Positions 1 to 61,771 of a stretch of 64,000 nucleotides of DNA are shown one piece after another. A program made the position numbers and the translations under genes. Numbering within the stretch: position 1 is the first letter of the stretch; each line of letters begins with the position of its first letter. Source of the stretch: Yuukianura sp. NJ FZ-2021 (Eukaryota); NCBI GenBank assembly GCA_046563655.1, contig CM102286.1, positions 6,076,001 to 6,140,000 on the forward strand. Direction: 5' to 3'. The notes below the pieces were generated by a model. The model saw nothing but the letters and a program-made list of their open reading frames with translations, had not been told where the DNA came from and searched no databases.

Positions 1-841
1 ACCGCCCAATATCCACGTTCCGTTCAAACTATTCTAAAGGAATGTATTTTCCATTTTAATCCTACATCGATTGTTTTCAAAGCATAATCCAACGTTACTT
101 TGGTACAACTCAGGGGTCATTATTTTGACTGACCTTTTTATTATTTCAAAGCTCCAGTTTCTAAGGTGTTGTAAAAGCTCAACAAAAAGTGAGTATTGGT
201 TTGACATTTTCATTAGGTTATCATGTGTCGATAATTATCGGAAGACGTGATTCGATACCGGGATTCCCTACAAATGTGCGCCTTCGAAATACGACCGATA
301 AAAGCTTAAGAATAACAGTACGTACGTTTGATATTCCTGTTATTAGCTTCGGGAATTTCCCGGGAATTCGGGAAATTCCCGATTCCCGGGAATTGGCAAA
401 GTATATCGGGAATGAGACCCTTACTATTGGCGCCAGCAACTTATTAAAATTTCATCCAAATCCCTAGTTGATATGCTGCACGGAAATGTTCGTTTGACTC
501 GTAGAAATTGAAGAAAATGTAACAGAAACAAAAGTTGTATTTGGTCTCCGTGCCCTTTTTTGCTTCTGCAACAAGAGTTTTATTTGGTCCCCGCTGGAGT
601 GCAGACATTTGTCACAAAAGTTGTATTTGGTCTCCAATGGACTTAAAAAATTGCAACTTTTGTTATATTTGGTACTCAAGAGGTTATTACCAACAACTCA
701 CGAACTTTACAACTCTCAAATTTATCATTTTTAGCAGTCCTTGCTCTACTTGTAGCTCGAGAACACGATTGCATGCTCAGAACCATACTCAGTTTGAGTA
801 CATAAAAAACATTGAACAGAAATTTCCAAATTTTCTACAGG

Positions 842-3328
842 ATGGATTTCAAGATTTTATGTCTTTTAGTTCACGTCGCACAAGGTTTGTTTGCAGCCGA
901 GGCGAATGTGGTTCTAGATTTAAACTTCTACATCAGTAAGTACAGGGATTGCAGAGTTGTTTTGTGGTATTACTCAAGCAACGAATGGGACATGCACAAA
1001 AGCATTCAACCAATCAGCGATCCCGTTTACATCAAAACAGGATACCATCGCAATTCAGCACTGAAGTTACGTGACATTTCAAGAATGAAACTTCCGTTTT
1101 GCAGCGTATTTTTCTTTATGACTGTATACATTAGACCTCAAAATTTTGAAGATATGCTGTGGTGGTTGGAGGACGCAAACGGAGGTGTCTCAAATGAAAT
1201 GGTGGCGTTTATTGCCTTTACGATGTACAAACAACAATCGTTTCAAAATTGTTCTTTCAAAAGTGAACAATACGAAACGTTTAAAGATGGTAGGCAGTAT
1301 CTCGCTAAACTGGCTGAGTCTTCTGTGTTGATGATTGATGATTGGTCTGAAGTGCTACGTGAAACATTTGGTGCTAACACTAGCATCACGCTCAGGGCAA
1401 AGGTCAACGCATTTTTACTCGGAAAGGCACCGCCCAAAACTCGCCTTTTCAAAATTCCACTCGTTTGCCGCCTAATTTCAGCAGAAAAATGCTTTACACG
1501 ACAAAAATTGAAAATGCACCTTGTGGTTTATGAAGACCGATTTACACCAGAACTTCTTGCTTACATGTCTACGGGCGCTGGTTCATGCAACTCCGCTGAC
1601 GAAAATTTGTTTAACATCACAGATTCCATTGCGAATAAATTCTACGGTCCACAGTCCAACGTTCCTATGACAACCAAAGACCAGTTTGGGAAGAGACGCC
1701 ACGCAAAATTTGGCACCATTTGGGCGTTTTTCGCTTATATGGAAATATTATCAGTCTCAACTAGTTGCATCCAATATCATCCGAAGCCACACATTAAAGT
1801 TAGTGAAGAATCTTTTTTCAAAAAACATTTAGTCAAACACTTTGTTCGTAACAGTCATTTCATGTACAAAAACATTCAAATGTTTATGCCTTCTCAATAT
1901 GCGGCTTTTCGGTATGAGGTTGCATATATGCATAACACAACCGCAGCAGTTATTATCCTCGACACGACAGAAATGGTATTTTCCACTTGCGACGGCATGT
2001 CAAGTTCACTTGGATTTGCAATTTACCTCACACCAATGGACAGCATGAGCTGGATGTTCCTAGTCGCCATGACAACCGTCATCGTCCCATTTGCTTTCAC
2101 AGGAATAGCCATGTTCCGGAAATTACGCGGTAAAATAATAGTGAAACTATTTTTGAATTCCTTCGTTACATCGCTCTCCGCCATTCTTGAAATTTCTGCC
2201 GGCCTCACGGACAAATTTGTAGAAACCTTGAACCTCGTGCCCTACTATCGCTTGGTATTTGGTTCATTTGTGCTGGTATTGGTAGTAATTGTGAATGGAT
2301 ACAAAGGATTTTTCACTGCCGGTATTTTGGCCCCACCAAAAGCCACCCACCGGTGGGACCGCGTCGATCAGCTCGAAGGATTTCTTATAATTGATCCGAG
2401 TGGATACCTTGGTTTCCTCCAGTGCCGTAAAATGATTTCTACTCTTGACTGTTTACCGATAGAATGCAAATGCACAGCCATGGGTTACGACCTCGACGAA
2501 TATTTGAACGTAACGTTCAACAAGAGTCGAGCAATAATGACAGAACATTGCAAATTATGCGAAAAATACGAAGAAGATTTTGCTTTTGTGCGAAAACATG
2601 ATACCATGATATCTGCTCTAAGCTGTGAAGATGGAACTTATCCGACATGGTTAGAAAAGATGTGGTGGTTTTCTTTGCCTTTAGCAGAAATCGCTTCAGA
2701 TTCGTCGTTACAAAAATCAAAATTTGTTGTTAATAACAAAGGGCAATTTTTCTCTGATAGTATCAGTGGATTGAACTCAAGTGGAATTGCTAAAATTTTG
2801 GAACAGTGTGATCGCACCATTTTGATCGACTATGTCGAAGCCGTGAATTACTTTGTAGCCGAATTACTTTTCAAAAAATTGGAAGCAGGGAATAGCGAAG
2901 AAGGCCTACAGGAATTTCCGATTTCAAAACAAAAAGTTATAGAAACTTGGGTTCCAATTATTTTTAAGATATTCCCTAAACATTTAGAATTTCCGCAGGA
3001 CAAAATAATACAGAGGATGCACCAACTCGTTGAATATGGAATTTTTGAAATCTGGCGGAGAAATGATCAGGAGGAAAGAGCAAAGAATTTAGAAAAATAC
3101 AAACAGGCTATAGCGAAGTATCGAAAGTTGCCGCACAAATTGACTTTGAATTTAAACCTGGCGACGGCAATGATTTTATGGGCAATATGTGTGCTACCTT
3201 CAGGAATTATTTTCCTGATAGAAACTTGGGAAAAGATTGTTAGTCAGGTTATAACTGAAGTTAAAAAAATTAACATTAGAAGAGGGTCAATCAAACACGG
3301 AATGACACTTTCCGCACTTTTGATGTAG
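842..3328 (+). CDS. Intronless divergent ionotropic receptor (IR/iGluR-like) chemoreceptor, 828 aa
   Basis: First ATG at 842 opens a signal-peptide-like stretch (MDFKILCLLVHVAQGLFAA). Channel-like segments follow: M1 (TPMDSMSWMFLVAM), pore-like SLSAILEIS, M3 (RLVFGSFVLVLVVIVNGYKGFFTAGILAPP, equivalent to SYTANL), late S2 (RMHQLVEYGIFEIW) and M4 (LATAMILWAICVLPSGIIFLIE). Single-exon structure is typical of divergent IRs. Confidence 0.8.
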   Translation: MDFKILCLLVHVAQGLFAAEANVVLDLNFYISKYRDCRVVLWYYSSNEWDMHKSIQPISDPVYIKTGYHRNSALKLRDISRMKLPFCSVFFFMTVYIRPQNFEDMLWWLEDANGGVSNEMVAFIAFTMYKQQSFQNCSFKSEQYETFKDGRQYLAKLAESSVLMIDDWSEVLRETFGANTSITLRAKVNAFLLGKAPPKTRLFKIPLVCRLISAEKCFTRQKLKMHLVVYEDRFTPELLAYMSTGAGSCNSADENLFNITDSIANKFYGPQSNVPMTTKDQFGKRRHAKFGTIWAFFAYMEILSVSTSCIQYHPKPHIKVSEESFFKKHLVKHFVRNSHFMYKNIQMFMPSQYAAFRYEVAYMHNTTAAVIILDTTEMVFSTCDGMSSSLGFAIYLTPMDSMSWMFLVAMTTVIVPFAFTGIAMFRKLRGKIIVKLFLNSFVTSLSAILEISAGLTDKFVETLNLVPYYRLVFGSFVLVLVVIVNGYKGFFTAGILAPPKATHRWDRVDQLEGFLIIDPSGYLGFLQCRKMISTLDCLPIECKCTAMGYDLDEYLNVTFNKSRAIMTEHCKLCEKYEEDFAFVRKHDTMISALSCEDGTYPTWLEKMWWFSLPLAEIASDSSLQKSKFVVNNKGQFFSDSISGLNSSGIAKILEQCDRTILIDYVEAVNYFVAELLFKKLEAGNSEEGLQEFPISKQKVIETWVPIIFKIFPKHLEFPQDKIIQRMHQLVEYGIFEIWRRNDQEERAKNLEKYKQAIAKYRKLPHKLTLNLNLATAMILWAICVLPSGIIFLIETWEKIVSQVITEVKKINIRRGSIKHGMTLSALLM

Positions 3329-14984: not shown

Positions 14985-17229
14985 AAATCTGTTCGTGACA
15001 TAAAAATACGTAACCACTAACCAGAAGGCACACTATGAGGATCTTTCGAATAGTTTTTGAATAAAAAAATGAAGAAATCAAGGTGATAAATAACATAATC
15101 ATGCTCAAATTGTCTCACAAGTCGCTGAATTTCAGGGGACATAAAACCCGTCAAAAAGGCCTTAACTTCTTTTGTATTTTTCAATCTTCCGGTATACTCT
15201 TTTGTTATTTATAATAAATTTTTTTGATCGTGCGTACTTCAAATCCTGCGTGGTAAGTTTAGGCCATCGACACTTGTCCGGCGGCGATTTTTGCTTATTG
15301 TGACACACGGGATTTTCCTTTGAAGCAATATTAAGCGCTTTCTCCTCATGCAGTTTAGAGCTATCCTTTTTCGTGTTCTCCCGCTTTAGTTTAAATCCAC
15401 CATTTCATGTTTTTATCTCTCGAATGAAAGTTGAGGAGCATTTTCCATATATTTACTCATAAAGTTGTATAAGTGTATGCCGTTCTTCCGGAAAGAAACC
15501 AAGCATCAAGCATCTTACAACCAAACAAGCACATACCCGCATACCTTTTTTTTAATTTTATGGCATATTAATTATGAGATGTTGTGAGGCGCCCTACGCT
15601 TGTACAAATTAGTCAAAAAAAAATATTCTTTAGCTTCAATTAATTTTGACAAGTTATTATTTAAATTGTTGCAGGCTTCTAAGGCACATCTTGCACTTGA
15701 TTTCTTCGCTTTTCTTCTTCTGTAATTGAAAACCACTATAATATTCACATTCTTTCAAAAAGAAAACTTCACTTACAATGTGCAAGTCGTGTGACATCAC
15801 AAACCGCAAAAAACGTTCCAGTGAAAAGTAATTATTTAGCTAACAATGGGTTTTATGCAATTTGAAAAATTATTTTAAATTCAAAACCTTCTTACCAGCG
15901 AATAAGTAGAATTCAAAACACCAAAGTATCCCGGTCAGAATTCCTATCCCGCCCATTTGGTGAAACTGTCAATATTTTGTGTGTGTGTTTATTTCTTAAC
16001 TTGCAGGTTATTTGAGCGAGCAATAAAATTTTTACTGCGTAGTCCACTATGTACATTAATCGCGTCGTTTGTTGGCATCAAGTGTGCGATGAGATATAAT
16101 CGTAGTTTCAAGTGTTGGGTAAAATTGATGGTGGTCTGTTTACGATGGAAAAGAAGGTAGCGTACTTTCTCCAAAGCAATTATTTTCTAGAAATTAGGCT
16201 ATCACTAAACTGTGGTAGGATTCCGAACTGTTTTTAGTGAAAAAGGCTAAAGTGAAGCTCAATGAAACGATGTCGCAGAGTTGTGTTTACGTGAAGGTGT
16301 ATAACACTTTTTTTAAGCTATCTTTTTGCCTGCGACATTACCAACACGCAACTACTGCTTCTGCAACTTTTGTTTTAGTTTTGGGAAACATTCAAAACTT
16401 TCTTCCTGTGAGAAAACAGGAATTTCGCATCTCTTCTGGGAGAAAGTTGTGAATGCACATGCGTTTCTTCCTCTCCCTGTTACTTCCGCTTCACTTTAAT
16501 TTCTTTAAAATCCCCACAGTAGTTTTGCCTTTCGCTGCAGAAAATGTTGTACAAATGTAAAATGATGAGTGATAAAGAATAACTAAAAACGTTTTGTTGA
16601 AAATGGTTTAAACTCATTTAACTAGTAATTTTATTGAATCACAATATGCTTTAAAATCACGTGCATTTGTGATTATTTTAGCCTTTGCTTTGACGTTGAA
16701 TTTGAGTTTGAAGCAGCAAATGTGTTATTTGCAGAATTCTCATCTCAAAAAACAGATTCACAGGTTGGCAGCTCTGGTTAAAATTAAAACAATTTTCCAT
16801 TTTCTGCAAAACAAAAATGTGTGTTCTACGATGATGTAATTTGATTGGAAGGAGAAAAGAGGCAGCAAAAAGACGGGGTTTGATCCGAACAGGCTTTTTA
16901 GTGTAAAGGGGTTGGTCGACGGGATTGAAGATGCCATTAGTGTCCATCTTTCAATTAAAGTTCAGCATGAAAGTTCTGCGTTCTCTCCACAGGAGACTGC
17001 CAACAACTTGTACTTCAAGTACTAACTCCTTTAACCGAATTATTAACTTCAATCTTTTGAAGTTGATTCTCTCTGCTTCACATGGCAGAGTATGTTTCTA
17101 ATAGTATTTTTGTTGGTCCGCGCATGACAACGAACAATAATGTCTGCGACAACATCTTGACTTACGGCGTTTGTTTTTCTAAAAACATACCGGAATGATG
17201 TTTCAATGAGTTATCTCATTTTTAATATT

Positions 17230-17594
17230 TGAAGCGGACAGGGACTGACGAGGGACGGATTCGGAACTCCGGAGGAAACCGAGTAGTTAGGCATAGGTAA
17301 AGTAGGAGGACTATGTTCTCTGAGTGTAGGTTACAGAAAGATCTTTATTCACATTTTCTGTAGCGGGAGTCTCTTCCCAACCTTCAACAAGTGAACATCT
17401 CAATAAAAGTTATTCCATTAGTTCACTTTGTTGTTTCCGACCATTTCATTTCTCAGTTGATGTTGGCACATTAGGAGAACCAAGTATTGTTGACCTCAGG
17501 TCAAATCTTCTCTCCAGGAAGATTCGACCTGAACTGGTGATTTCCCTGTAGAGGAAATCCCAGTTTCGGTCTCAGGGACTGCGGGGTTGTTGCA
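17230..17594 (+). repeat. 5' LTR
   Basis: TGAAGCGG...GTTGCA; AATAAA at 17402-17407; direct repeat of 22732-23096. Confidence 0.95.
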
Positions 17595-17595
17595 G

Positions 17596-17610
17596 TGGCG
17601 GCCGAAGGGA
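17596..17610 (+). other. Primer-binding site, tRNA-Lys-like
   Basis: TGGCGGCCGAAGGGA starts 1 nt after the LTR. It resembles the tRNA-Lys(UUU) PBS TGGCGCCCGAACAGGGAC with one mismatch and a 2-nt gap. Confidence 0.6.
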
Positions 17611-18477
17611 TTATTCCAGTGATGTCAAGATGATCAACTGAAATGAAAGGTCAACAGGTCAAGTGAGACTTTCCTGTAGAGAAAGGCTCTATTGAAGAAA
17701 ACTGAAGAAGACTACGAGATAAATTGATGAGAATTTCCCTGTAGAGGAAATTCTGACCTACCAGCTGATTGATTTTCCTGTAGAGAAAAGCAATCCAGCA
17801 TTGGAATAAAACATAAACCTACTTGTATTTTCCAGGAGAGAAAAGACAGGTCAGGTCAAAGGTCACATAAAGGCACGGGTGCTGCCAAAAATTTTTCAAA
17901 AATCGTTTTCACGCACGGGTGCTGCCCGATTTTTTCTAAAATCCAAACACTTTGAAATTTTCCTGAAGAGAAAAGTTCAAAGGTCAAGAACACCAAACCA
18001 AAGGACAGAAAGCAATTCGTCGCTCATTTTGAAAAATCCTGAAGAGATTTTTCGAAAAACCGAACCGATTTTCCTGTAGAGAAAATCGTTCACTGTCCAA
18101 TTGATGCAAAATTAAGAGGAGGAAGAGATTCGCATAACAACCCTGACATAAAATTAAGGCACGGGTGCTGCCAAAAATTCCAAAAATCAGACATTACGCA
18201 CGGGTGCTGCCCAATTTTTTTCAAAAAAAAAAGCGAAAATCACGCACGGGTGCTGCCCGATTTTCCAAAAATTACCAAATACTTTGATTTCCCTGAAGAG
18301 GAAATCGAAAACCCAAGGAGAGGAACAAGTTGTAACTTGGAGTTGAAGCTCCTGAAGAGAGCATCGACACCAAGACCATCTCAGAACCCCTTAAAACAAA
18401 CAGAATCCTAAAAATCGACTCAGTTAACTGGACTAATTGAAATTCCTGAAGAGAATTTCGTTTTCCAGCATTAACTA

Positions 18478-20121
18478 ATGAGCAGAAGGGAGGTGAGAGA
18501 TTTAGAACAAAACTCTCGTGCATTCCTACGTGGATTCAACATGGACAAACAAAACATAAATCCAATTCCTGAAGAACCAATTGATGTTGATGATCTTGAA
18601 GGTGACATGCATATTCAGAATCCAGTAGATGATGATGATGATTATTCAAATGGAGGTTCAGATGCAAGTTCCGTTGTTCAACGAACTGTAGCAAACCAAG
18701 TTCCTATCGTCTCATCTGCTGCTTCAACTCTCACAACCCAAGCTCCAACAGCAACAACAGGCATGCGCACTAGGGGTTCTGGTACATCCAGTTCACGTGC
18801 TGTACCGAGTGGAGCAGATTACGTTCACATTCCAGAATCGAGTCAAGTTAATGAACAAAATGTCGCAAAATGGATCAATGAGGGATTAGCTGCTATGGTT
18901 TCAGAAATTGTTAATCCTATACATACGGCTCTAACGCGATTGGATAGACGTATGCACAGAATGGAGATTGGCAATGCAAATCCTACTGGCAGCCAATTCT
19001 ACCAACCACAATTCAGCCAAACACAGCAAATTAATCAACCTCAACAAGATTTTCTAAACGCTCTTCAAGGAATTCGACTGACAACCGTGAGTTCTGCAAT
19101 TCCAATTCCGAAATTCAACCATAAGAAAACAACAGCTTCAGACTTCTTGAAGGATGTTGAAAGATACTACAGAGCTCAACAATACAATGAGAATGACTAC
19201 TTGTATTTGGTGAAAACCATTTTGCCAAATGATGCTAAGGAATGGTGGGACCATGTACGTCACAGAATTGATGACTGGGATGAGTTCAAGCAAGAATTTA
19301 TAGAAAAATACGACGGAGCTACCAACATCATGGAACGAATGAGGCTTTTGCAAACAAGACTTCAGCGTGTCCATGAACCAACAGAGTCTTTCGTTTTTGA
19401 AATGATGAAGATGTCAAAGGTCGTTTATCCAAATGAACCTACAGAAATGGCTGTTGAAAGAACAAGAAATGCCCTATTTCCGCAGTTGCGACTGGGTTTA
19501 GGAGCTCAAGAAATTAAAACACCGGAGGCTCTAGTCAAAGCTTGTCACGTGGTTCACCGTAGCCTTGAAGCTAACGCTAGAGTTTACAAAGAAAAAATTC
19601 GCCTACCGCCATTAAGTAAACATGAAATGGAAGAATCTAAGAAAAACCATGGTCCCAAACAGAAATCTGAAGAAAAGTCGACGGAGGAGACAGAAACTGA
19701 ATCCTATCGCGACTCAGCGTTTTCTCATGGACAACGGGGATTCAATCAAACATACAATTCAAACTCTAGACGTCCATTCCGCGGCGGCAGAGGAAATTTC
19801 CCTGATAGAGGAAATTTCATTTATCGTGATGGAAGATGGAACGGAACCCCAAGAGGTGACAAACAAAATGACAAACCTCAAGAAGCTCAACCAAGTCAAA
19901 ATCCATCTGACAAAAACAAGCTGGCTAATGTTCAATGCATGAAATGCAAAGGATTTGGTCATCTTACAAAAGTGTGTCCGAATAAAACCGGATTGGCACT
20001 ACCCACTCATGATGAGGAATGGGAAACTGAGTACGACGAGGAGTACTACGAAGAAGAACAACTGGATGATGACTACACCAATCAAAATCCAGATTTAAAC
20101 TCCCAAGGGAGACACCAATAA
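18478..20121 (+). CDS. gag: Gag: retrotransposon capsid plus CCHC zinc knuckle, 547 aa
   Basis: Capsid-like PKFN...DFLKDVERYY...DAKEWW...WDEFKQEFIEKY...LQTRLQRVHEPTESF; RGG-rich segment; CMKCKGFGHLTKVC knuckle; acidic tail. Confidence 0.9.
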   Translation: MSRREVRDLEQNSRAFLRGFNMDKQNINPIPEEPIDVDDLEGDMHIQNPVDDDDDYSNGGSDASSVVQRTVANQVPIVSSAASTLTTQAPTATTGMRTRGSGTSSSRAVPSGADYVHIPESSQVNEQNVAKWINEGLAAMVSEIVNPIHTALTRLDRRMHRMEIGNANPTGSQFYQPQFSQTQQINQPQQDFLNALQGIRLTTVSSAIPIPKFNHKKTTASDFLKDVERYYRAQQYNENDYLYLVKTILPNDAKEWWDHVRHRIDDWDEFKQEFIEKYDGATNIMERMRLLQTRLQRVHEPTESFVFEMMKMSKVVYPNEPTEMAVERTRNALFPQLRLGLGAQEIKTPEALVKACHVVHRSLEANARVYKEKIRLPPLSKHEMEESKKNHGPKQKSEEKSTEETETESYRDSAFSHGQRGFNQTYNSNSRRPFRGGRGNFPDRGNFIYRDGRWNGTPRGDKQNDKPQEAQPSQNPSDKNKLANVQCMKCKGFGHLTKVCPNKTGLALPTHDEEWETEYDEEYYEEEQLDDDYTNQNPDLNSQGRHQ

Positions 20122-20142
20122 CCACCTCGATGTGTGTTCTCC
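20094..20142 (+). promoter_or_regulatory. Putative -1 ribosomal frameshift signal (gag-pol)
   Basis: T TTA AAC heptamer (20094-20100) is in the correct gag phase, followed by a 6-nt spacer and a stem GGGAGACAC (20107-20115)/GTGTTCTCCC (20133-20142). The -1 frame is open into the protease remnant. Confidence 0.7.
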
Positions 20143-21710
20143 CGATTCTCAACAAAATCTCAAGAGGTGTACCTACAATTCAAGATACTTCAAATCAATT
20201 CAAATTTTCTGCATTCTTGGACTCAGTGTCTAAGTTTTGCATGATGACAGAACAATTGACAAAACATACCCACTCAAAAATCAAAATTCAATTCAAAATT
20301 CATATTTTTCTCAAATGTGACGCATGAGACATTTGCTTGGGCACTGCGCAAGTTCAAGCTATAGATGGAAAGGATCGGCCAATCTTATTCATCTGCAAAA
20401 TCCTAAAGAAAACGGAACGGAGTGCACACATTTTCATTCTCTCACGAGCTCCAGTTGACAGTCATGACACTGAAGGAACGGACGACCCAGAAGAGATCGT
20501 CTGTACCCCTATGTGTTTCTGTTACGAGACACCGACTTCAAACCAAATCAAAATTGACCAAGAAAATGAAATTCAAGCTTCACGTCTCAAGAAATTGATT
20601 CGTGATGACCCTTCAAATTCCAAGTGTACACACTTCTTAATTGAAGTTGGAATAGTGAAGCGTCAAGTCGAGATTCCGCTCAAGAGAATCAAAAAGTACT
20701 CTCTCGCAGATACTACCGAGGTTCACTCAACAGTAGCTGAAACTCAAATTCAAAAAATGGAAATTCCGGGTTTCCAAAAATGTACATCCAGTGCAGAGGA
20801 ACCTAATCAAGTTCAGTCGGCAGGGATCGTACCAGAGTCAAACCAAACCAAAATGTCAAAACAGAAGTTCGTTTTCCTGAAAATCAAGATTCCAGTTATC
20901 CTAACGTCACTCCAAAATGAAATTCAGAAGATTTTTCATGATGCACCGGAGTCAGGTCATCTTGGAGTCAAGAAGACAAAGGAGGAAATCAAACATCGAT
21001 GTTTCTGGAACAGAATGAATAAGGACACTGCTGACTACGTCAAGTCATGCAAAATTTGTCAAACGACAAAGCCGGACAATACCCTACCATCTGGGTTATT
21101 CCAACCAACAAAATTCACGTTAGCCCTTTTGAACTTAGGCAACGATTTGCCACTTCCGTTTGACAGAAATTTGGAAGCTAAAGGAAACACCAATTTTGAT
21201 GAAGAAAGCGCGAAATTGACATATTTACCCGAGAAACTACAAGAATTAATCAAATGGGTACGCGAGAACATGGAGGAGGAACATGAAGAAACTAAGAAAA
21301 TGTACGATAGTTCTCATCGAGATGTTATATACGACAGTGGTGATGTTGCCTTAATTCGAAATCACCCAATTCCCAAGAAGGACGATGAGATGATGCAAAA
21401 ATTTTCAAAACGACGGCTATGCCCTTTCAAAATTACGTCAAGAACCGCAGATGCAAGCTACGAATTAGCAGATCCAGTCACAAACAAGAATATCGGGAGA
21501 CGTCACGTTTTGGAGCTAAAACCATTTTTTGTTCGAAAAGAAACTGTGTCAGAAATCAAGAACAATGACATTCGAAAAAGTCAACCAAATACCAGGAAGT
21601 TACGCGAGAAGAAACCAACCAGTGACATTCCGACAAGTACAGCAGTTACAAGCAAATTACGCGAAAGAAAACAAGTAAATTATAGGTCATTGGCAGGCCT
21701 ACGTCATTAG
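20130..21710 (+). pseudogene. pol: Internally deleted pol: protease stub, RNase H fragments, integrase zinc finger and C-terminus; no RT, no DDE core
   Basis: One frame with a single TGA at 20325-20327. Motifs: FLDSVS (degenerate DSG), CDA*DICLG...QAIDGKDRPI (RNase H DAS motif), LSRAP, FHDAPESGHLG...CKICQ (HHCC), LCPFKI (GPY/F-like), RHVLELKPF. Confidence 0.85.
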
Positions 21711-22731
21711 TTAAGTCAAAATAATAATTAATTATTAGTTAGGAAAATATTCAAATTATTATAATATAAATCACAATGTTGATAGATTTATAATTTTGCT
21801 GAAATAATTAATAGTACTGAAATAGTCTAGTCCAGTACCTTTAGTACATTTAGTCGTTAAATTTAATGTTTAGTAAAATAGAATCGTACGTGGGCGTTAA
21901 GCAGTTTCCGCTAAGTCAGAGTTTTAGTCACAACCTCACTTTAGAGCGCTAACTCACAATCATTTATCTAACTATCTCACTTGCTTTCTAGATTCAGCAC
22001 AGTACAGTCTAAAGATTCACTCTAATTTCCCTGTAGAGGAAATTGGTAATTGAAATTCTCCAGAAGAGAGAATTTCTACTTCTAAAAATGTTTTACTGAT
22101 TTTCCTGAAGAGAAAATCGGTGTTGACTTCTCCGTAGAAGAAGTGGACAATGTCACAAACGTTGAACTGAAGAAGAAATCAAGATTATTGCCGACTTCTG
22201 ACGAAAGTGTCAACAACACTCAATTTACTGACAAACCAATGGAAGTGACAAGCAGTTGAAACGTAACTTTACTTCAAAACAAATTGGCACAACGATATGC
22301 TGAAGAAGACATTGCTGACATAACTGATGAGTTGCAGATCAACATCTAACAACATCAGAGACAAGTTTTGACAGTTCCTACATCCTACAACAATTCAACA
22401 ATCTAACTTCAAAGATTTACTCATTTGTTTCTCGAATGGACACAACAGGCAAGAATGCCCGAAAGTCAACCAACAACCGGACAGAAAAGCAATATTTTGG
22501 AAAGAAAACAATCCCGGAACCTCTATTTTGAACAATGTCCAGTCAACAGAATTCATTTGACTCAAAGAACTAACATGAAAAAACGGGAGAACCTTAAGAC
22601 AAAACGTGGGAATTCTGGACGTGTCGAGTGGAAACGAGACGATAAGAAGACGAAGATTTTATCCGCTGGTCGAGGTCGGAGGACCGAGCATGGAGATGGC
22701 GCTGATGGAGGCGCGTTTCGCGGGCGCAATA

Positions 22732-23096
22732 TGAAGCGGACAGGGACTGACGAGGGACGGATTCGGAACTCCGGAGGAAACCGAGTAGTTAGGCATAGGT
22801 AAAGTAGGAGGACTATGTTCTCTGAGTGTAGGTTACAGAAAGATCTTTATTCACATTTTCTGTAGCGGGAGTCTCTTCCCAACCTTCAACAAGTGAACAT
22901 CTCAATAAAAGTTATTCCATTAGTTCACTTTGTTGTTTCCGACCATTTCATTTCTCAGTTGATGTTGGCACATTAGGAGAACCAAGTATTGTTGACCTCA
23001 GGTCAAATCTTCTCTCCAGGAAGATTCGACCTGAACTGGTGATTTCCCTGTAGAGGAAATCCCAGTTTCGGTCTCAGGGACTGCGGGGTTGTTGCA
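22732..23096 (+). repeat. 3' LTR
   Basis: 365-bp direct repeat of 17230-17594, followed by TSD TATT. Confidence 0.95.
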
Positions 23097-25157
23097 TATT
23101 TCACACTAGTATTGTCTCACATGTGACGAACAGAAATTGGAACTCGATAAATGCGAGGTTAGAAAATTGTGGAACTTGTAAAAGCGTTTGAAAGCTGCAA
23201 CCAAAATCAGAGTAACTTGAAAAAAGTAATAAGTATAAAATCTCCTACGTAAAATTCCTACGTTACAGTCTCGCACGGTACGTTTTCAGAATTCATAAGG
23301 GAGTATGAGTCGATCTGTTCCGCATTTGTTTTCCAAGCATGATTGAGCCTGACTCTGTAATGTAACCATTCTGGGTAATATCCGTCCTAATAAGTTCCAA
23401 TAAACGACAAAACGATGTCCCTGACCTGCTTCAGAACTTACGACGAGACGAAATTGGACGGAAACCAAAATCCTTTCGTCCTCTGCAGCTTTTTGATCTT
23501 TCTCGTGCACAAACTATGTTTTGCAAATTCATGGTGTTATTTTGCTCTCACTGTCCTAAAAATGTTTAAAAACTAAAGCAAGCATCAACATTATTATAAA
23601 ATCCAACTGAAAAATTGGATATTATGAAACATTTCATACGCTCACTTCAATGTAATGTGTTTATATACGCACGAATGTATTTTACAATAGAGCTTGAAAA
23701 TGACCAAGTGCAATGTATTGCACCATGTTCGAATTTTTGGAAAAGTAAAAGAAAGACAAGCCACGAATAGGATAGGAGAACCTAATGGAGAAAGTTGGGC
23801 TTAACTGGAGTTACTTATAAGAAAATAGGATTTTTTGAACAATTTTCAGTTTTATCCCTTGACAATCCAAAAACTCTTCCAGGAACTATTCGAGTCCAAC
23901 TCTCTTCCCTTCCTTTTTCTTTCCTGACGTGAATTCTAATTTATTTTCTTCAGCTCAGTCAGTCCTTCCGTTTCCATTACTGCACAAAGCATTGGACTGA
24001 ATATCGCTTCCGCTTTTTCCTTGTTCAAAATTCTGTGTCCTCACAGTTACACTTTCTCAATCAAACTACACCAAAAATATCCAAATTTTTGGAACAAACA
24101 CTGAAAACAGAAAAAGAAAAGTTAAACGACTTATAGACACGAGTTACTCATTTAGTCATACACCAATTGTGATGCTTTCTGATGCTAAATGAAATCGAAT
24201 GAGAAAAAAATATAAATAAACACACTTCAAATGGTGATTGGTACAAAGTTGGCAGCTTCAGTAACTAAAGTTGGCAAACCGGAATTTTGGCAAAGACTTT
24301 TAAAGCAACGGAGTGTTGTGATTGGCTTTTGATATTGATGAGCTAAAGGCCGTTTACTGTGCAGCACATTTCAACACCTTCTTTTGAAAGAACTTTTCTT
24401 TGCTAAAATGGACGCTTCAAATTGGTGATTGATTATTAACATAATATGGAGTAATTTGCGGTATATACTGAAATTCTCACGTAGATTTTCATGTGATCAC
24501 ATTTAATGTATGATGAATCGGGATCTGGCAAACTATCGAACCAATTTTGAGCTTTCCAACCAACTTTCGTTTTTTTTTTCAACTCCATTTTGCTCCCACT
24601 ACTTAAATCCTAGTGCATACGCACCTTCAGAAAATTAGTTGTGGTAAGAGTCTTATCACAACTAATTTCGACTTCCTAATTACCGTAAGACTATATTTCA
24701 GATACGCTATATTATTGTTATTTACGCGTTAGGGCTCGTTTTTATTTCATGTATCCTATAGCATTTACTGACGTCTGGAATTTGGTGGAAGATTTTGAAG
24801 AGTAAATCAGATACTATGCGACTTTCGTAACAACTAAAAGTCTCAAACACACAAAATCATGAGTTTTGTTCATTGCACTATTTTTCTTTTGTTCAGACTA
24901 ACATAAGGGAAATATTTGGTAATTAATTCTTAGCCCTCTTCGTCCCTGTAACCCTCCCACTCCTCAGATGAGTCAAAGGACAAGTCCCTTTAATGCGTAC
25001 ACTTTGCGCCTACCCCACCCTAACTTCTAATCTTCTAGAAGGATACATTTCTATTGTGAACTTTGGAATTGGATCCAGTTTCCAGTCCCATTTTACATGA
25101 GAATCACTTTGATCAGATGAACATAGATTTTACAAAGGATCAAGTTCAGTGTTAGCA

Positions 25158-36040: not shown

Positions 36041-39000
36041 TCAAGCGTTTGATTCTTTTAAAGTCTGGGCCATTTTCATTGCTGCATCACTGGATTGCCA
36101 GTCGAGGAATTCGTTGTTGTCTACTAAGTGACTCTGGCCGGCGGGAGGACGTCCAAACCTCGGAAGTTTCTGAAATCCGTTCTGCTGTGGGAGATGTTTG
36201 GGTCGATTGTACGAAGATGTACAGTCATCTGGAAAAAAGTAAAATGTTAAATTTTATATCAGCTCATAAAATCGGGTTCTAAAACTAAGGACATGCAGTA
36301 TCATACTCTAATTGACGAGTGTCCCTTGGTCACAACGCGAAAACCCATGCTAATGCAAACTATAGGTAGAAAAAACTCTGTGCTTGGAAGAGAGGAACGA
36401 TTCTGGGGTGTACCTTTTACATTACTTCTCCAAGCACAGACTTTCCACAAATTCCATCTCAACTCAAATTCAGGGGGGGGGGGGTCTGGGGGGGTCCACC
36501 TCAACAATGTGTTTTTGATTCAACTAGACGGAACCCGTGATGTTTACACATCACGAAATTTACTTGAAGCACTAGGTCATTGTTGGGTCAAACGGAAGAG
36601 CTAGGAGATTTTTGACAAAATATTAAAAATCATCTTGCCCCATGTCAAACATCGACTAGCTCTTTCGTTTGGCCCAACGATGAACTAATGCTTCAAGTAA
36701 ATTTCGTGATGTGTAAACATCACGGGTTCCGTCTAGTTTCCAACAATTCAAAACTTTCGGATGCACTTTGTCTCACTGCATAAACAGAAAGCAAGAGAAA
36801 GTTGAGAACGGAAATGCCACCTAGCGCAATAAATTTGAAAATTTTGAAACAGCGTAGCTTTTGCTTTTTTGCTCGGGGAAATTGCTTGTTTAAATTTCGC
36901 GCTCAGTCAGTGATTTTGTTCAAAATGCTTCACAACTTTTTCCTTGAAAACGAAAACTGCTGAGAAACACAAAAACGTTGTACATCAAAGTAATTTTTTA
37001 GGTTGAAAGGTGTATAATTTGTGGATAATTGGCATAAATTTGAACGACTTCATTCACTGGCCATTAAACTGCTAAACCGGTTCGCATCCTCAATTTTTCT
37101 TCGAAGTCAATTATTTCTCCCATACACTGTGAACCATTATCACCCGGATGATAGTCTCTAGTGAGTAAAAAGTAATTGGGATTAACGCACCGAAGCAAAA
37201 ATTAACGCCATTTACACAGTAAAAGTGTACACTAAAGTACAATTTCTTGTCAAAACAATACAATGGAAAAACAACAACATCTTTTAAAAAATCTAAGCCT
37301 AAAACACTTTGAAAAAAAGAACTAACCAGTTCTTGAAGGCAGTAAAGGTGCGAGATGGCGCCTCTCCAAAGATTTACAAGAGTTATCGAATTTCTTCTTA
37401 TTTCCTTTGTTGTACAGTCTTTTACTTCCAGATTTACCGGAATTGAAGCTATCACTTGAGTACGCAGGGGAGCTTGAGCGCGAATTTTTAATCACTCCCC
37501 GAGCCGACGCCGAGCTACCACTGTTGTTTAAAATGTAATTGTTGGAAGTGGTTTGTGGAATTACATCATCGGCTTCTGCATATAAATTGCAGGAATTGGA
37601 GTCTGAGGCGAGACTTGGCAAGGAAGACTGAATTTCTCGATCAATCAGAGGAAAGACACTCGGATTTTGTTGTTGTTGCTGCTGGGAGAGCAGGAAGTTG
37701 GCTTCTTCGAGGTCACCGGGTTGGTAAACAGCTTCTGCAAAACCATTTGAGGCGGAAGCGGACTTGTTCGGATTGAAAATTTCGCCAATGTGGTACAGAT
37801 TCTCAGTCGTATGGGAATTTAGTTGGTGACCATGATGGAACTGTGGGTGTTGTTGATTGCCAGAGTAATGATGTAGAAGGGAAGAAGGAANNNNNNNNNN
37901 NNNNNNNNNNNNNNNNNNNNNNNNNNNNNNNNNNNNNNNNNNNNNNNNNNNNNNNNNNNNNNNNNNNNNNNNNNNNNNNNNNNNNNNNNNAAGGAATTTG
38001 ATCAGACTGCAGACCATTGTGAGATCTGTTTTGACCTGGACTTGGATAGCATCCCATTCTGGAACTCATCGGGATCTGTCGAGAGCAAGCAAAAAGGAAA
38101 GATGAAATTTTTGATTTCTTTTTTTTTTTTTTTTTATACAAATTCTTGAATTTTTGAATTTGTAAATTCCTGGAGAAAAGCAAATTGAAAGTAAATTTTT
38201 GTTTTCATCAGTACAAATTGTGCCGTTCTTTGCAACAGAACGCAGGTTTTTACTTAGAAATGCATTTAGAAAAAAGAAATGAAAAGTACATTCTTCTAGC
38301 GAGCATTTGTACTTGTTTCTAGATGAACAAGGAAATTCGAATTTTCCAGGAAGAGTTGAAAATTTGCGCGTGAACTGAAAAATTTAATTTCATTTGCTTC
38401 TCTCTTTTTTGATCAAAAATTTATACCATGTTCATAGCCGATGAAGGTGACGGAGACGGTGGCTGATGACTGGATTTGAATTTTCTAAAATTATTTGACC
38501 CCATGGACAGCTTCGAGCGGCCTAAAAAATTTCCAAAGCAATGATTATTACCTTGTCCAATTATTTTTTGAAATTTCGAAAATTGTTCTTTACAGGATAA
38601 ATTCTTACCGGAACTAAATTGATCCGAATCTCGATAGTTATCCGCTCCATTCTTGTTCAAGGGCCCTCCGTTTATGGGCAGTGGGTCCTAAAATGAGCAA
38701 TAAATTTTCATGACGACTCTTCACCTTATTCAAGCCTTGGAAGACGAGCCTTTGTCTTTTAAAAATCAAAGGGACCCCCACAAGGCTGTCTGACTTTGAG
38801 CTCGTAAAATTCTATTTAAGTTTATCTAAAAATTTCCTTTTATGGCGCATCCCATGTTTTTTGAAACCAAAATAAAAGTGTAGTTTTTTCTTAATTTTGA
38901 ATTACATAATTAGGTCTCCGCTGGATAAGCGTCGTGGTGGCATAAGGTGTTAAGTCTGGCTGTTGAAGGTGGAGCAACTGCGCCTGTCCTTTTCCATTGT

Positions 39001-42000
39001 TGCAGCTATTATTGTAGAACGTCGTAAGACTATGTGGGTCTACTTCGGCGTAGTCTGTAGCTTCTGTAGCCATTTCTCCACTGCCCAAGTGATTCGTCAG
39101 TAGCTTTGTCTTGGAACGATTAGAATCCTTGTCTGTCGTGTCAGTTGGACCCCAACGTTGGTCAATCCAGAGCGACTGCTTTCCGCTAACAAACTGCGTG
39201 TTACTATGTGGTGCCACGACGACACCTGAAAATTCACATGAAGAAATTTTTTTAAATACATTCAAAATTTTGGCGTGCTTCAGATTCAAGCAGGTTCTTT
39301 ATTTCTGCCTCAAAGAGCCGCAGCAGATCAAATCTCAATTTGAAAATTAGTTCCAACACGTCCGTTTTTTGAATTTGGGCTTTGAAGCGAGGAAGAGTCA
39401 GGAGCAGTGGAACGGAATGATTTACTTAAGGTGTGAGAATTTTCTGGAAGATGCGGGTGAATCCTATCAGTTCGGTGCCTAAATGTAATAATACGCTTAA
39501 GGTCTCACTTGAAATATGGTCTTTCTTCCCGTGGGACTTTCTGCGGCTGTAGAGGATGATGATGAGAAGAAGGAGGAAGATGAACAGGAGGAAGCCCATC
39601 AGGATGATGAACCAAACTTCCTTAAGAATCTCTGATGAGTTCCCATCTTCAGAAGAATTAACACTCTTCGAATTAACTTCAGACGAGGCGGCTGGAGATG
39701 CAGGGACCATGAGAAGGGAAAGCGGCGGTGAGTAGGGCCCTTCCCCCACTGCGGTGAAAGCACTCACGCGAATCGTGTACGACCTGCCGATGGTCAAGTT
39801 GTTCACGACGATGGCGGTAGTGTTTGAACCCACGTCAGTTTCCGAGTGAATCCGCGTGTCGTTGCGGCGCACTTCCACCTAAGGATAAAAAAATGTGTAA
39901 AATATGCTGAAACAAGCATACAAAGATACAGATGCTGTGACAAAAAGTCATCGCCAAAAGAAAAAACAGAAGATTAACATTACGACAATTTTTTCCCCAA
40001 CGTAACTCGTGTTTTTTTTCTAGATTGGTTTGCTTTGTGTAAGTTGAATTAGTCGATGCGTTTTTGGTGCTGTTTTACGTTTTCAAAATCCAATTGAATT
40101 AATCGATGATTTCAATTCAATTCCGAGATGAAGCTCGGAACGCAATAAATCGATACATTACTTGAATGATACTTTTGTTTTCCAAAAATATAAATTTGAA
40201 ACACAGATCGATGCAGATTAATCTTCTGTTTTTTAAGGTTTTGTGTCTTTACTGCCTTTTGATCGAGCAGAAACCAGAAAAGGAACTCAGGCATTTTGTA
40301 ATGGCACATTGAAGCCAATTTTCCTGCTCCTTTGGATCTCATTTTAATTCTGGTCTGCCTCTCAATTTCCATTCACTTCTCCGCTTTCTTTCAAATTAGT
40401 TGCACCCACGAGCGCATCTCAACCTCAAACAGTCTTCTGATAAAAACGCTCCATTCTTAACAAAAACAGCGGGAAAGGAGAGTTTTTATCAGGCCATTTG
40501 TAGTCTAATGGGAATCTTATTGAAAACGGCAGAAATCCTACGTAACAGTAATTTTTTAGTTAAGGTATTCACTAAACACGTTATATGCTAAGAGTCTTCT
40601 TTTTTTTCAATTTTACTATTCCATATAGGTTCAGAAAAATTTAATCCAGCAAATAGCTCACCAAAAATAGTATATAAAATTCCAGTGGCAGGCTGTTTAC
40701 AAGCCGTTGAACTCTTGCGTTCTAGCAGACTATCATTTCTTACTGCTAAAAAATACTAACCATAAAACCTGTCAAATTATAACCCAAAATGTGCTATTTT
40801 ACTCTAATCTAATGTTATAAAGTTGAAAAACAGTAAGCAACATTACTCTTTGTAATGTTGGTTACGTTAGGGAGTGATGGGTGGGAAAGGAGGTCAGAGG
40901 AGTCAGCATAATTAGGAGGAATGACCCTTGAAGGGCTAATAATTTGTCTTGGAGAAAGTCCATAACTTTTCACTTACTCTGTAGCCTGTCAAAACTCCAT
41001 TAACGTGGTTAGGTGGCGGGGGAGTCCAGGTTATGGTGGCTGCAGTGGAGTTGACGATGGTGGTCACCAGGAGCCCTTGTGGTGGGGCAGATGGCCCTGG
41101 AAAAATAAATAATTAGAACCCTTAATTCCTGTTCTTGAATTAAATCTAATGGAGCATAATCGTCTTTCCCCTCCGCATCCACTTTCTCTACCCTTAAGAT
41201 CAATTTTCTTGCGCGGACGGTTTTTAAAATTCGGGGTTATAAAAATTCAAAAGTAAATAATAAAATCAAAATTTGGTCTAAGTACGTTACAGCGGAATTT
41301 AAAATTTTGTCTTTCCCCGAGTTCTTCAAATGTTAAAATTTCATGAGGCACGAGTAAACTGCTCAAAGTTGCTCATTTTTTTGTTACAATAATTCAAGTC
41401 TAAAATGAAACGTTTGAGGCCGTTAGGCAATTGATTTTCACTTGAGATTTGAAAATGAAAGTTATAATGATAAAGTTAGCGCATGGAGATTTGAAAACTT
41501 TCATTTTAGTTCACTGAACTAAAACTATACGGAGATGCGCGCATAAGTACACTTTTGAAAAGGCGCGGTTTAGAATTTGGTGGTAGCAGCCACTAATTCT
41601 TTGAAATATTAAAGAGATGCTTTCATAAATGCGGAAGGGGGACCAGCCATTCGACGGTTTCCTTTTACATTTTCCCTAACTTTGCTGCACTTTCCCTTTA
41701 ATTCGAGGAAAGTTCTTGCCGTTGAATTAATACTCGGAGCAGTCCCGCGGGAAAACAATGTTTTCATTTCAGAAAGTTGTGTGCTCAGAAGATGAAGAAG
41801 AGGGGAGACGCTTTCTTTGGAAAAAATAGTTACTTCCTCCACTAATGAGCGACCTCTTAAGACAAGGGGCATGAGCGAAGAGTTCTACGCAGAACCGTGT
41901 CTCAAGATAAAAACTTTTTTTTAAAAAAAATTGAATTTTGGTTGTAAAATATAAAAACAATGGGAAGAAGACCACTTCAGAAATCAGAAAAATAAAGTTT

Positions 42001-60000: not shown

Positions 60001-61771
60001 AAAATTTTTGAAAGTTGTATGTTAGTAAAAGTAGCTATAAATAAGCGGGAAAGGTCAAAATAGCGCCTCTGGATCATTTACGAGAAGCATAAAACTGTTC
60101 GTCTCGACTCCCGGAACCTTTTTAAATGTTCTTCCCTGCAGTATTCTCCAGAGAATAAGAAAAACGTCAGGTTCTATCATATACATTTCATTTCCTCCTG
60201 CCAGCGGCTAGTCATTCCCCAAAAAAGCACAAGCTGGAAGATGGTCTGACGCTTCTGAATTTAAGCGTGTCATGCTTTCCAGAAGTCGAGGTTCAAGTCA
60301 GTACCGCTAGCGATTCTACCAGGATGCACGCAGTACCTTAGCCTAAAAGCCTAACTTTCAAAAACCCAAAGTTTCAAAAACCAAGTTAAAAAGGCTTCTT
60401 TTGAACTTTGGAAATCCAATGTGAAGGGTATCACACCTCCTCTGACACGTTGATTTAAATCACACGTCGTCATTCTCCTTTACACATCATCATGACTTAT
60501 TACTTCTAGTGCGCATGCGTTCCAGCGTAAGGTTCAATGTTAGGTTAACCTAATGTAAATCCAAGGATGAAATGCAATTCAATTCATCCTCCAGCAAAGA
60601 ACAGACCATAAAAAGGATCAAGAACAACATCACACACTTCAAAGTGGAGTTACATTTCTCACCTCAAAGTTTTCTTTCCCTGGCGGCAATTTTGAACCAT
60701 AACAATCATAGTAATCACACCCTCAGAAAAATATGAGCACATTCTACTTTACAAAAAGAGAGAAAAGGAAATGTAAGTGCTCCATGTGGTTTTAACCCTA
60801 AGTAATTTAGTCATAGGGTTTATTAAATATAACTAAAGGCCTCTGGGCCCTTGAGCTTTTGATGTTAAGGGACCCTGGGACTTGGACTGGACGTTATGCT
60901 CTGGTAGGTTGGAAGTGAGCCTAAACATGTCCATAAATGTTTAAGGCTGGGAGTGCAGAGCTTAAAACGTAACTGAGGAATGCCCCAAAGCCTCGGAAAT
61001 TCTATTTACTTTCTTTCCAACTGAAAAGATTCCGTAGGAAATGGTCGACAGAGTAAACGATCCAAGAACACATTACGTTACGGCGCGCTCTTTCAAAACT
61101 GCAGAAGGAAAGGTAAGGTTAGGCAGCGGACATTGTTATTAACCCTTTGTGCCGAACCATTGTTCCATTCCAACAAATTTTGTCTATAGGATTTTGGAAA
61201 TGAGCCGTGGGACGCAACTCGTGCCCAATGGACACAAATTTTCGGTCGAAATTGCCGCCAAATCCATCATGAATAGCACAAAAACTACGCAGGGTTTTGT
61301 ATTTTCTTTTTAAAAGCAGATTCTACCGCTTTTCTGTGCAAAAATTCGACCATTGTTTAAAATTAATCGACTCCATTTAGTAGATTAGGTCCAAATTACT
61401 CTACTTTAGATTAAGGTTAAGTTAGACTTTAATGTTCGACTTACCTCCAACTTGAAGTGTTGCATTTCGACTTCGTACAGTTCCAACGCTATTACGGGCA
61501 ATACACCAGTAAGTTCCAGAATCCGATTCTTTGGTTCCATCCGGTCCAAAATCTTTTCTTCGTCCATCAGAGACGCTCAGAAAAAACAAATCTCCGAAAG
61601 GCAGAAAAATTCTTCGGCCTTCATTGGATGGACCAAGCAATTCTCCATTCTTGTACCATTCAATTACTGGATCCGGTTTTCCTTCAGCTTTACAATTGAG
61701 TGTCGTCGGTTCGTTTCGTGTCACCAAAACATCTTTAGGATGCTCCGTAATTTTGGGAGAACGGTGTTGAG
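36041..61771 (-). CDS. robo1: Roundabout receptor, Robo1-like (5 Ig, 3 FN3, TM, CC0/CC1); signal-peptide exon not found
   Basis: Exons 61771-61445, 48775-48625, 48462-48326, 47374-47111, 46187-45669, 43763-43174, 42251-42011, 41096-40978, 39878-39509, 39225-38906, 38687-38427, 38075-37327 (contains the N gap) and 36228-36041. Motifs: SPKITEHP...NEPTTLNCKAEGKP, PFYKSIEGQPSNS...PSAPP, TM WFIILMGFLLFIFLLLLIIILY, LWID...TDKDS...KLL, CC0 DYAEVD...LTTFYN, CC1 TPYATTTLI. Confidence 0.92.
36524..36736. mobile_element. Small foldback MITE in the last Robo intron
   Basis: ~80-bp inverted arms beginning CTAGACGGAACCCGTGATGTTTACACATCACGAAATTTACTTGAAGCA, around a ~50-bp spacer. TSD is either TA or CTAG. 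Confidence 0.8.
37891..37990. other. Assembly gap (100 N) inside a Robo cytoplasmic exon
   Basis: Run of exactly 100 N. Confidence 0.99.
52956..53646. mobile_element. hAT-superfamily MITE (691 bp) in the large Robo intron
   Basis: TIRs TAGAGTTTCA.../...TGAAACTCTA; perfect 8-bp TSD GTGCCCTA (52948-52955, 53647-53654); dense GAGTC/GACTC subterminal motifs; internal ~130-bp direct duplication (~52990-53130 vs ~53480-53615). Confidence 0.9.
57209..57227. repeat. (AG)n microsatellite
   Basis: About 9 AG units. Confidence 0.8.

Follow-up and report, generated by a model that had tools for sequence, protein, structure and literature searches.

Why should one retrotransposon display the same seven-letter loop again and again on hairpins whose stems differ? 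The question is raised by a long terminal repeat (LTR) retrotransposon at 17231-23096 of a 64-kb stretch of contig CM102286.1 from Yuukianura sp. NJ FZ-2021; the whole stretch is called the window here and all positions refer to it. A previous inspection of the letters alone (the sequence-only reading) had described an array of about 19 covarying hairpins with a conserved CNGDAGA loop and had proposed that a protein recognises it. The hairpins exist, they are non-random, their stems covary and their loop is kept. The simplest account is that of a single-stranded, multivalent platform whose loop is read by a protein. In its specific form, to which we assign a probability of about 0.4, this would be an RNA platform putatively read by the zinc-knuckle Gag of the element itself for packaging or assembly. 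That the hairpins act as RNA, that a protein reads their loop and that this protein is Gag are the parts of this reading that we infer.

To locate the copies we scanned the window mechanically for the loop C-N-G-[AGT]-A-G-A flanked by at least 4 pairs, with G-T pairs allowed. On the + strand 16 hairpins were found, all of them within the element and between 17539 and 23061, with loops starting at 17546, 17674, 17739, 17778, 17833, 17963, 18039, 18074, 18293, 18352, 18446, 22031, 22061, 22105, 22132 and 23048 (hairpins are named below after these starts). The sixteenth is the 3' LTR duplicate of h17546, which leaves 15 distinct + copies. The scan of the - strand gave two hairpins with 16-pair stems, one per LTR (loops 17511-17517 and 23013-23019), and one weak chance match at 51776 with 4 pairs, two of them wobble pairs. 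Within the element, 16 of the 26 + strand occurrences of the motif form hairpins; dinucleotide shuffles of the element (n = 1000) contained 0.105 hairpins on average and 2 at most. In the 58 kb outside the element, hairpins were formed at 0 of 39 (+) and 1 of 38 (-) occurrences. All 19 copies named in the sequence-only reading were found at their places, including the reversed copies that it had reported in the LTRs.

The copies are not spread evenly over the element. One lies in the presumed U5, 10 in the leader and 4 between pol and the 3' LTR, and all 15 strict copies are in non-coding parts. The 10 leader copies (10/15) occupy 17665-18460, between the primer-binding site (17596-17612) and the gag ATG at 18478. 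Because an AATAAA is present at 17402-17407, the LTR hairpins at 17495-17571 would belong to U5, and the genomic RNA would carry them once, at its 5' end. Rfam gave 0 matches at E up to 1 in 17000-23600 on both strands, and ARAGORN gave no match. In the literature no description of such an array in retrotransposons was found, most subscription journals being outside the coverage. This agrees with the sequence-only reading, which had not recognised the motif as a described element.

The 15 distinct + copies were aligned without gaps. Loop positions 1, 3, 5, 6 and 7 are invariant in all of them (CTGTAGA six times, CTGAAGA six times, and CAGGAGA, CAGAAGA and CCGTAGA once each). The closing pair is C-G in 14 of the 15, h22132 alone having T-A, and the adenine at position -6 from the loop is invariant (15/15), with T opposite in 11 copies and G opposite in the other 4. 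Eight versions of the inner stem occur: TTTCC/GGAAA, TTTTC/GAAAA, CTTTC/GAAAG, AAATC/GATTT, GCTC/GAGC, AATTC/GAATT, TTCTC/GAGAA and CTTCT/AGAAG. In local folds most copies continue into an outer helix past a one-by-one mismatch or a bulge. In the four copies that have an A.G mismatch on the same inner stem these outer helices are GAG/CTC, ATTG/CAAT, ACTTGT/ACAGGT and CTTTGAA/TTCAAAG, unrelated to each other and yet paired.

We compared this pairing with shuffles, a control that does not preserve relatedness among the copies, and with partners slid along the alignment. Over all 13 pairs, 81% of the 195 cells are paired, compared to a shuffled mean of 59% (reached in 0 of 500 shuffles) and to 38-56% for slid partners. 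Pairs 1-4 had been a condition of selection, which leaves the outer pairs -7 to -10 as the fair test of covariation. Here 85% are paired, compared to 50% after shuffling (0/500 reach the observed value) and 30-62% with slid partners, and each position shows 3-5 pair types. Changes on both sides were seen in 12 of the 13 pairs, and the mean column identity of the aligned arms is 67%. Together with the invariant loop positions, these values bear out the earlier claim of a fixed loop on differing, compensating stems.

A covariance model made from the 15 copies, as the sequence-only reading had advised, was run over the window with the filters off. It recovered most copies: 13 training copies and the 3' LTR duplicate scored 31.7-42.2 bits, whereas h22132 reached only 16.1 bits (E 0.29). 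Sites outside the training set with E < 0.01 were the two mirrored LTR hairpins (28.6 bits), a site within gag (25.9 bits) and a GGGAATTTCCC palindrome at 347-384 (24.0 and 23.3 bits). The latter is part of a group of overlapping GGGAATTTCCC-type palindromes at 347-400, outside the element, which match the model at 23-24 bits on both strands; they have no loop motif and are not members. A further site at 20475-20507 (21.0 bits) encodes D-D-P-E-E-I-V in the pol remnant and was not counted as a member either.

Two side observations concern the loop itself. A stop triplet is present inside 13 of the 15 loops (TAG if position 4 is T, TGA if it is A) and TGA occurs at -8 to -6 in many copies; these triplets probably come with the motif as a by-product. 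The motif also shares the 9-letter string CCCTGTAGA with the microRNA miR-10 as printed in papers, which we took as chance; searching the literature for the loop letters brought up papers on miR-10 besides primers and adapters.

Along the + strand the array starts with h17546 in the presumed U5 (17526-17571; CTGTAGA; 34.6 bits), which has a core of 7 pairs at 17539-17559 and extends to about 18 pairs with bulges (local fold -25.5 kcal/mol). It is followed in the leader by h17674 (17665-17689; CTGTAGA; 5 pairs, an A.G mismatch and 3 pairs; 38.0 bits), h17739 (17730-17754; CTGTAGA; 9 pairs; 38.0 bits), h17778 (17768-17794; CTGTAGA; 5 pairs, A.G and 4 pairs; 36.6 bits), h17833 (17821-17851; CAGGAGA, the sole CNGG loop on +; 5 pairs, A.G and 6 pairs; 31.7 bits) and h17963 (17950-17982; CTGAAGA; 5 pairs, A.G and 7 pairs; 38.8 bits). 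The second half of the leader contains h18039 (18027-18057; CTGAAGA; 12 pairs, 1 of them G-T, with arms AAATC/GATTT; 33.8 bits), h18074 (18062-18091; CTGTAGA; 7-8 pairs, a bulge and 3-4 pairs; 37.1 bits), h18293 (18283-18309; CTGAAGA; 10 pairs, 1 of them G-T; 42.2 bits), h18352 (18342-18368; CTGAAGA; 4 pairs GCTC/GAGC, an A.A mismatch and 5 pairs; 34.3 bits), of which the local fold (-17.6 kcal/mol) includes a third helix, and h18446 (18438-18460; CTGAAGA; 8 pairs; 35.0 bits), which ends 18 nt before the gag ATG. When the 944-nt leader was folded as a whole, all 10 leader hairpins were present in both the minimum-energy and the centroid fold.

Behind pol, h22031 (22022-22046; CTGTAGA; 9 pairs; 39.9 bits), h22061 (22052-22076; CAGAAGA; 9 pairs; 26.8 bits), h22105 (22094-22122; CTGAAGA; 11 pairs, 2 of them G-T; 41.7 bits) and h22132 (22121-22149; CCGTAGA; 6 pairs, a mismatch and 4 pairs) follow each other closely. 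Two of these are twins of leader hairpins: h17739 and h22031 are identical at 21 of 21 letters (17732-17752 and 22024-22044), and h18074 and h22105 match at 23 of 25 letters (18064-18088 and 22095-22119), in both cases between unrelated flanks. Conversion, shared selection or pairing of the 5' and 3' ends could be the source of these twins. The unpaired decamer CTGAAGAAGA, which consists of the loop motif plus AGA, is found once in the leader (17702) and twice behind pol (22167 and 22300), with similar flanks.

The mirrored copy of the presumed U5 is at 17495-17533 on the - strand (16 pairs; 28.6 bits, E 1.4e-4). Its loop is CTGGAGA, TCTCCAG on the + strand, and its two wobble pairs are G-T on - and A-C on +. 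In the 3' LTR, the copy of h17546 is at 23041-23061 and the mirrored hairpin at 22997-23035 (-). The motif-like hairpin within gag (19789-19822, +; E 7e-4) is outside the strict pattern because its loop, CTGATAGA, has 8 letters. It encodes GNFPDRGNF and its membership is uncertain; the two coding look-alikes, at 19789 and 20475, can be explained by their codons.

Which proteins does the element itself offer as readers of the loop? Its LTRs (17231-17594 and 22733-23096) have TG...CA ends and are 100% identical over 364 bp, and the element is flanked on both sides by TATT, which reads as a target-site duplication. The primer-binding site, assigned by its position and its TGG start, would begin 1 base past the end of the 5' LTR. 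The gag gene (18478-20121, +) is an intact frame of 547 codons that contains an RG-rich stretch and a single CCHC zinc knuckle; its start was placed according to the N-terminus of a relative (P0002). Pfam matches of gag to Arc_capsid_dom and Retrotrans_gag were weak (24.3 and 23.6 bits, under the curated cut-offs), and a protein atlas comparison led to generic retrotransposon Gag clusters. The single CCHC knuckle is invariant in all four aligned relatives.

The pol remnant (20328-21710, +; 460 codons) consists of an RNase H piece, an integrase zinc finger and a C-terminal SH3-like part, with Integrase_H2C2 as its one Pfam domain match (1.1e-18). P0004, a protein of 1129 aa and the nearest full-length relative, shows the gypsy order of domains: RVT_1, RNase H, H2C2, rve and SH3_Tf2-1. 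Because the remnant aligns solely to residues 457-492, 565-785 and 927-1121 of P0004, the protease, the reverse transcriptase (RT), most of RNase H and the integrase core are gone. Identical LTRs, gag, H2C2 and the domain order of P0004 are all in line with the gypsy kind of LTR retrotransposon that had been proposed for this locus, and paired direct LTRs, TG...CA ends, a target-site duplication and a primer-binding site were all found. Judged from its sequence, with the identical LTRs as the sign of a recent copy, the element appears to be a young, non-autonomous, gag-retaining derivative of a Ty3/gypsy-type LTR retrotransposon. Protein searches returned 3 Gag relatives and 10 longer Pol relatives. 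An alignment search with Gag gave no confirmed locus in metagenome, viral or prokaryote genome contigs, and a search of viral contigs with the nearest full-length Pol gave no locus. Just 5' of the 3' LTR (22680-22732) the letters are G-rich yet mixed, with no clean polypurine tract; the closest counterparts among purine-rich runs are the hairpin halves made up of loop and 3' arm.

If Gag is the reader, the hairpins would be cis-acting stem-loops of the full-length plus-strand RNA. Each would display the C-N-G-D-A-G-A heptaloop on a C-G closing pair with the invariant adenine at -6, while the remaining stem would need only to pair. The array would then be a docking platform for a loop-reading protein, the likeliest candidate being Gag with its CCHC knuckle and RG-rich tail. 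Because the sites are many and of presumably moderate strength, they could together provide a high avidity for capturing the RNA into particles, and with the last site right next to the gag start codon, binding of Gag could also switch the RNA from translation to packaging. For a dependent element that has kept gag and lost protease, RT and the integrase core, the array may be a means to compete for particles made with the enzymes of a helper. Gag is favoured as the reader because the sites occupy the classic packaging region as far as the gag start, because the loop exposes purines and because the crippled copy has kept gag. The position between primer-binding site and gag, in a leader of 880 nt, fits retroviral packaging regions, and retroviral nucleocapsid zinc knuckles bind exposed purines.

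Similar designs are known from viruses. The retroviral case that comes nearest is mouse mammary tumour virus, whose Gag selects its RNA via a purine loop and the primer-binding site (PMC8096270). The element resembles packaging regions of this type in that stem-loops with exposed purines stand between primer-binding site and gag and a zinc-knuckle Gag is encoded. It differs from retroviral packaging regions, which are single composite structures, since one short motif is used about 15 times, also behind pol. The closest design, and an established one, is that of packaging-signal-mediated assembly in single-stranded RNA viruses (MS2, picornaviruses, hepatitis B virus), in which many degenerate stem-loops with a shared loop motif bind the coat protein (PMC6281560, PMC5699041). 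Shared with these signals are the common loop motif on degenerate stems and the proposed avidity. Unlike the viral signals, which are dispersed through coding sequence, the array is clustered in untranslated regions and its loop is unusually strict. Bacterial sponge RNAs of the CsrB/RsmZ type, with many hairpins that carry one short purine-rich loop motif (GGA) and bind many copies of one protein, are alike in design only; the domain of life, the motif and the protein differ. We regard the array as a new form of an established signal type and not as a new category.

A bolder version of the Gag reading, which we consider doubtful, is that CNGDAGA plus the adenine at -6 forms a private Gag code, that a gag-only, pol-less derivative multiplied this code to about 15 copies, placed towards both ends of its RNA, to outcompete its autonomous helper, and that the mirrored U5 copy puts the signal on minus-strand strong-stop DNA. 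If true, it would be the first defined, countable packaging code of a metazoan LTR retrotransposon, with an arms race in signal copy number. To our knowledge, the choice of RNA for packaging in animal Ty3/gypsy elements is largely unknown, and domesticated relatives of Gag such as Arc and PNMA are studied as RNA carriers. A loop read by Gag could serve as a compact tag for steering RNAs into such capsids. Whichever protein is involved, about 15 natural variants with a strict loop and free stems in one RNA are a ready mutational series for finding it.

How is the array treated within the element family? The element is present in five sequencing runs, from two coded organisms and two studies. 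Contigs from 4 runs aligned on the element at 80-100% likeness, and the family is multicopy and variable. The insertion is polymorphic, since an empty-site contig of organism B connects 17224 with 23096, and in organism A two runs have contigs that link 17194 and 23098 through 28 other letters. In organism B a 650-nt contig spans 17566-18214 with 45 differences and only 2 gaps, so that the leader layout is kept there. Of the variants we examined 40 of about 860 rows. The variants listed there affect 23 sites in internal non-coding parts, and 5 of these are in loops (17834, 17836, 17966, 18075 and 18449), all at position 2 or 4: positions 2 and 4 of h17833, A>T at 4 in h17963, T>C at 2 in h18074 and A>T at 4 in h18446. 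Each of them keeps C-N-G-D-A-G-A.

Several results weigh against a plus-strand RNA that is read by Gag. Four copies stand behind pol, which is unusual for a packaging region. The shuffle controls overstate the independence of the pairs, because the copies are paralogues within one element. Local fold energies are better on the + strand in 7 copies and on the - strand in 8 (Wilcoxon p 0.63), and the z-score of the whole leader is a modest -1.94 on + and lower, -3.32, on - (20 shuffles each). The sequence-only reading had taken T-G pairs as suited to RNA. Such pairs are indeed present, with 6 G-T in 5 stems versus 0 A-C by contiguous extension, but the asymmetry depends on the rule, as a looser helix definition gives 6 G-T versus 2 A-C. 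Moreover, much of the asymmetry may go back to one event, inherited by the six copies that have a T.G pair at position 8 in common. With neutral energies and a 6:2 ratio, the step from wobble to RNA is weakly supported, and the preference for RNA over single-stranded complementary DNA is weak. A reader of plus-strand RNA also leaves the mirrored copy of each LTR unexplained; its place of action might be an antisense transcript or minus-strand strong-stop DNA. Finally, among the variants listed none falls in stems (212 positions) or on fixed loop letters (70 positions), the remaining 1658 positions having 18, which is suggestive of avoidance, but the depletion (expected about 3.3, seen 0) is weak because the 40 rows are a selected list.

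The main rival to Gag is a host RNA-binding protein: an export, localisation, stability or translation factor, for example a SAM protein of the Smaug/Vts1 type with shifted specificity, of which the array would recruit many copies to the unspliced transcript. We consider it a serious though unlikely alternative. The structural evidence for Gag applies to it equally, and the copies at 22022-22149 suit export or stability elements better than packaging signals. The Smaug/Vts1 element is described as a CNGGN0-3 loop on a non-specific stem, where the protein contacts the 5' part of the loop and the 5' stem but makes no contact with the 3' half of the loop (PMC4053848). The array has in common with it C1, a preferred U at position 2, G3, a free stem, a loop within the range of 4-8 letters and multiple copies per RNA. 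However, the Smaug consensus demands G at position 4, where just one of the 15 + loops has G and the others have A or T, and the A-G-A of the 3' half is invariant. Because CNGG fails in 14 of 15 loops and the 3' half is fixed, the hairpins are not Smaug elements, in keeping with the earlier remark that CNGG fits a minority of them. Motif hairpins are also absent on + from the other 58 kb, which include host genes and in which a widespread host signal could be expected, but which are a small sample. If a host protein does read the loop, this would be a new hairpin code near to, and distinct from, the Smaug element.

A second repeat in the leader, with CGGG at the start of a possible loop, would also suit a host protein. 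This repeat, GCACGGGTGCTGCC, occurs five times on + (17873-17886, 17913-17926, 18159-18172, 18198-18211 and 18244-18257) and not on -, within two duplicated blocks of 75-110 nt. Two of its copies can form GGCA/TGCC around a 7-letter loop that starts with CGGG and agrees with the Smaug consensus. In the remaining three the pairing is limited to 3 pairs or takes the form of an alternative CGGG/CCCG stem.

Instead of binding a protein, the hairpins might bind each other. The palindromic arms of the leader and post-pol twins would open and pair, joining the 5' and 3' ends or two genomes, and the U5 loop TCTCCAG might kiss the loops of the array. Such bridging of 5' and 3' ends has reportedly been seen in Ty3 and Ty1. 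The two twin pairs, alike without similarity in their flanks, speak for these contacts, as does the + strand loop of the LTR hairpin, which has 6 of its 7 positions complementary to the array loops. However, in every copy except h17833 the central loop position fails to match the U5 loop, and h17833 has its mismatch at position 2 instead. Most hairpins of the leader lack a twin behind pol, and a conserved loop on varying arms is left unexplained. We consider RNA-RNA contacts improbable as the main role of the array.

Could the sites work as duplex DNA, bound in the leader by a host DNA-binding protein like the insulator of gypsy or a downstream enhancer? In gypsy, 12 Su(Hw) sites are located within 340 bp of the 5' untranslated region, at the same place in a related kind of element (PMC2374998). 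The likeness lies in about a dozen short motif copies in a Ty3/gypsy-type leader, and one inverted copy per LTR would be tolerated by DNA sites. The gypsy sites are, however, plain duplex motifs with AT-rich spacers, whereas here each copy is an inverted repeat with compensating arms and an asymmetric core. Duplex sites would do without inverted arms, whereas here the arms covary and outer helices of unrelated sequence still pair. The conserved core is asymmetric and the arms, which need only pair, are not fixed half-sites; this argues against a duplex DNA site, and we hold the idea to be very improbable. AGGTCA repeats, which would fit it, are enriched in the leader. They occur on + at 17498, 17648, 17656, 17848, 17853, 17860 and 17981, 7 in about 500 nt of U5 and leader, and 17 times in the 58 kb outside the element. 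They are partly direct repeats with a spacing of 1-2, some overlap the outer arms of h17833 and h17963, and they presumably resemble nuclear-receptor half-sites.

We give little credence to the view that the array has no function and arose by local duplication of one palindromic unit, or by snap-back copying during reverse transcription, in a family too young for decay. Identical LTRs mark a young copy, the arms are traceable to one ancestor-like unit at the above-mentioned column identity, and duplication would preserve orientation without selection. However, eight inner stems and unrelated outer helices all pair, and none of the 10 non-hairpin occurrences of the motif in the element is a copy that has lost one arm. 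Among the variants listed none is in stems or fixed loop positions, and the leader of organism B, as seen in the 650-nt contig, was kept without large gaps.

The least probable of the alternatives, which we regard as barely credible, is mimicry of a tRNA anticodon stem-loop that engages a modification enzyme, a synthetase or the ribosome. The anticodon loop of yeast tRNA-Phe has exactly the letters CUGAAGA (PMC3923128, PMC2817452), the loop of 6 of the 15 copies. All 15 loops have 7 letters, five of the 15 copies have an inner helix of exactly 5 pairs, the sixth place is the purine G in all of them and T is at the second place in 12. CUGUAGA (6/15) is, we believe, the anticodon loop of animal tRNA-Tyr, although a literature search gave no confirmation. 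U33, the counterpart of loop position 2, is regarded as universal in tRNAs. Here position 2 is A or C in 3 of the 15 copies and variable in the family, and because this letter varies true anticodon mimicry is disfavoured. The stems are unlike tRNA anticodon stems, neither Rfam nor ARAGORN gave a tRNA match, and the primer-binding site is presumably unlike the end of tRNA-Tyr or tRNA-Phe. Small-RNA precursors (stems of 4-13 pairs are too short), a coding repeat (the loops start in all three frames and stops intervene) and free mobile palindromes (none elsewhere in the 58 kb) were rejected.

A search of metagenome contigs with a degenerate 21-letter hairpin pattern returned 100 single matches (L001-L100), which were discarded as chance coding, most of their arms not being complementary. 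Most of the matches examined belong to one recurring stretch that reads D-F-P-E-E-E-I, presumably from the tRNA-modification GTPase MnmE; the flanks of a minority differ. The motif doubles as an ordinary P-E-E codon string.

Around the element, the window contains an open frame of 840 codons (806-3328), 100 consecutive N (37891-37990), and exon-like frames at 39426-47474 and 61422-61829 (-) with what by eye appear to be immunoglobulin and fibronectin-III repeats; these surroundings look like an animal genome.

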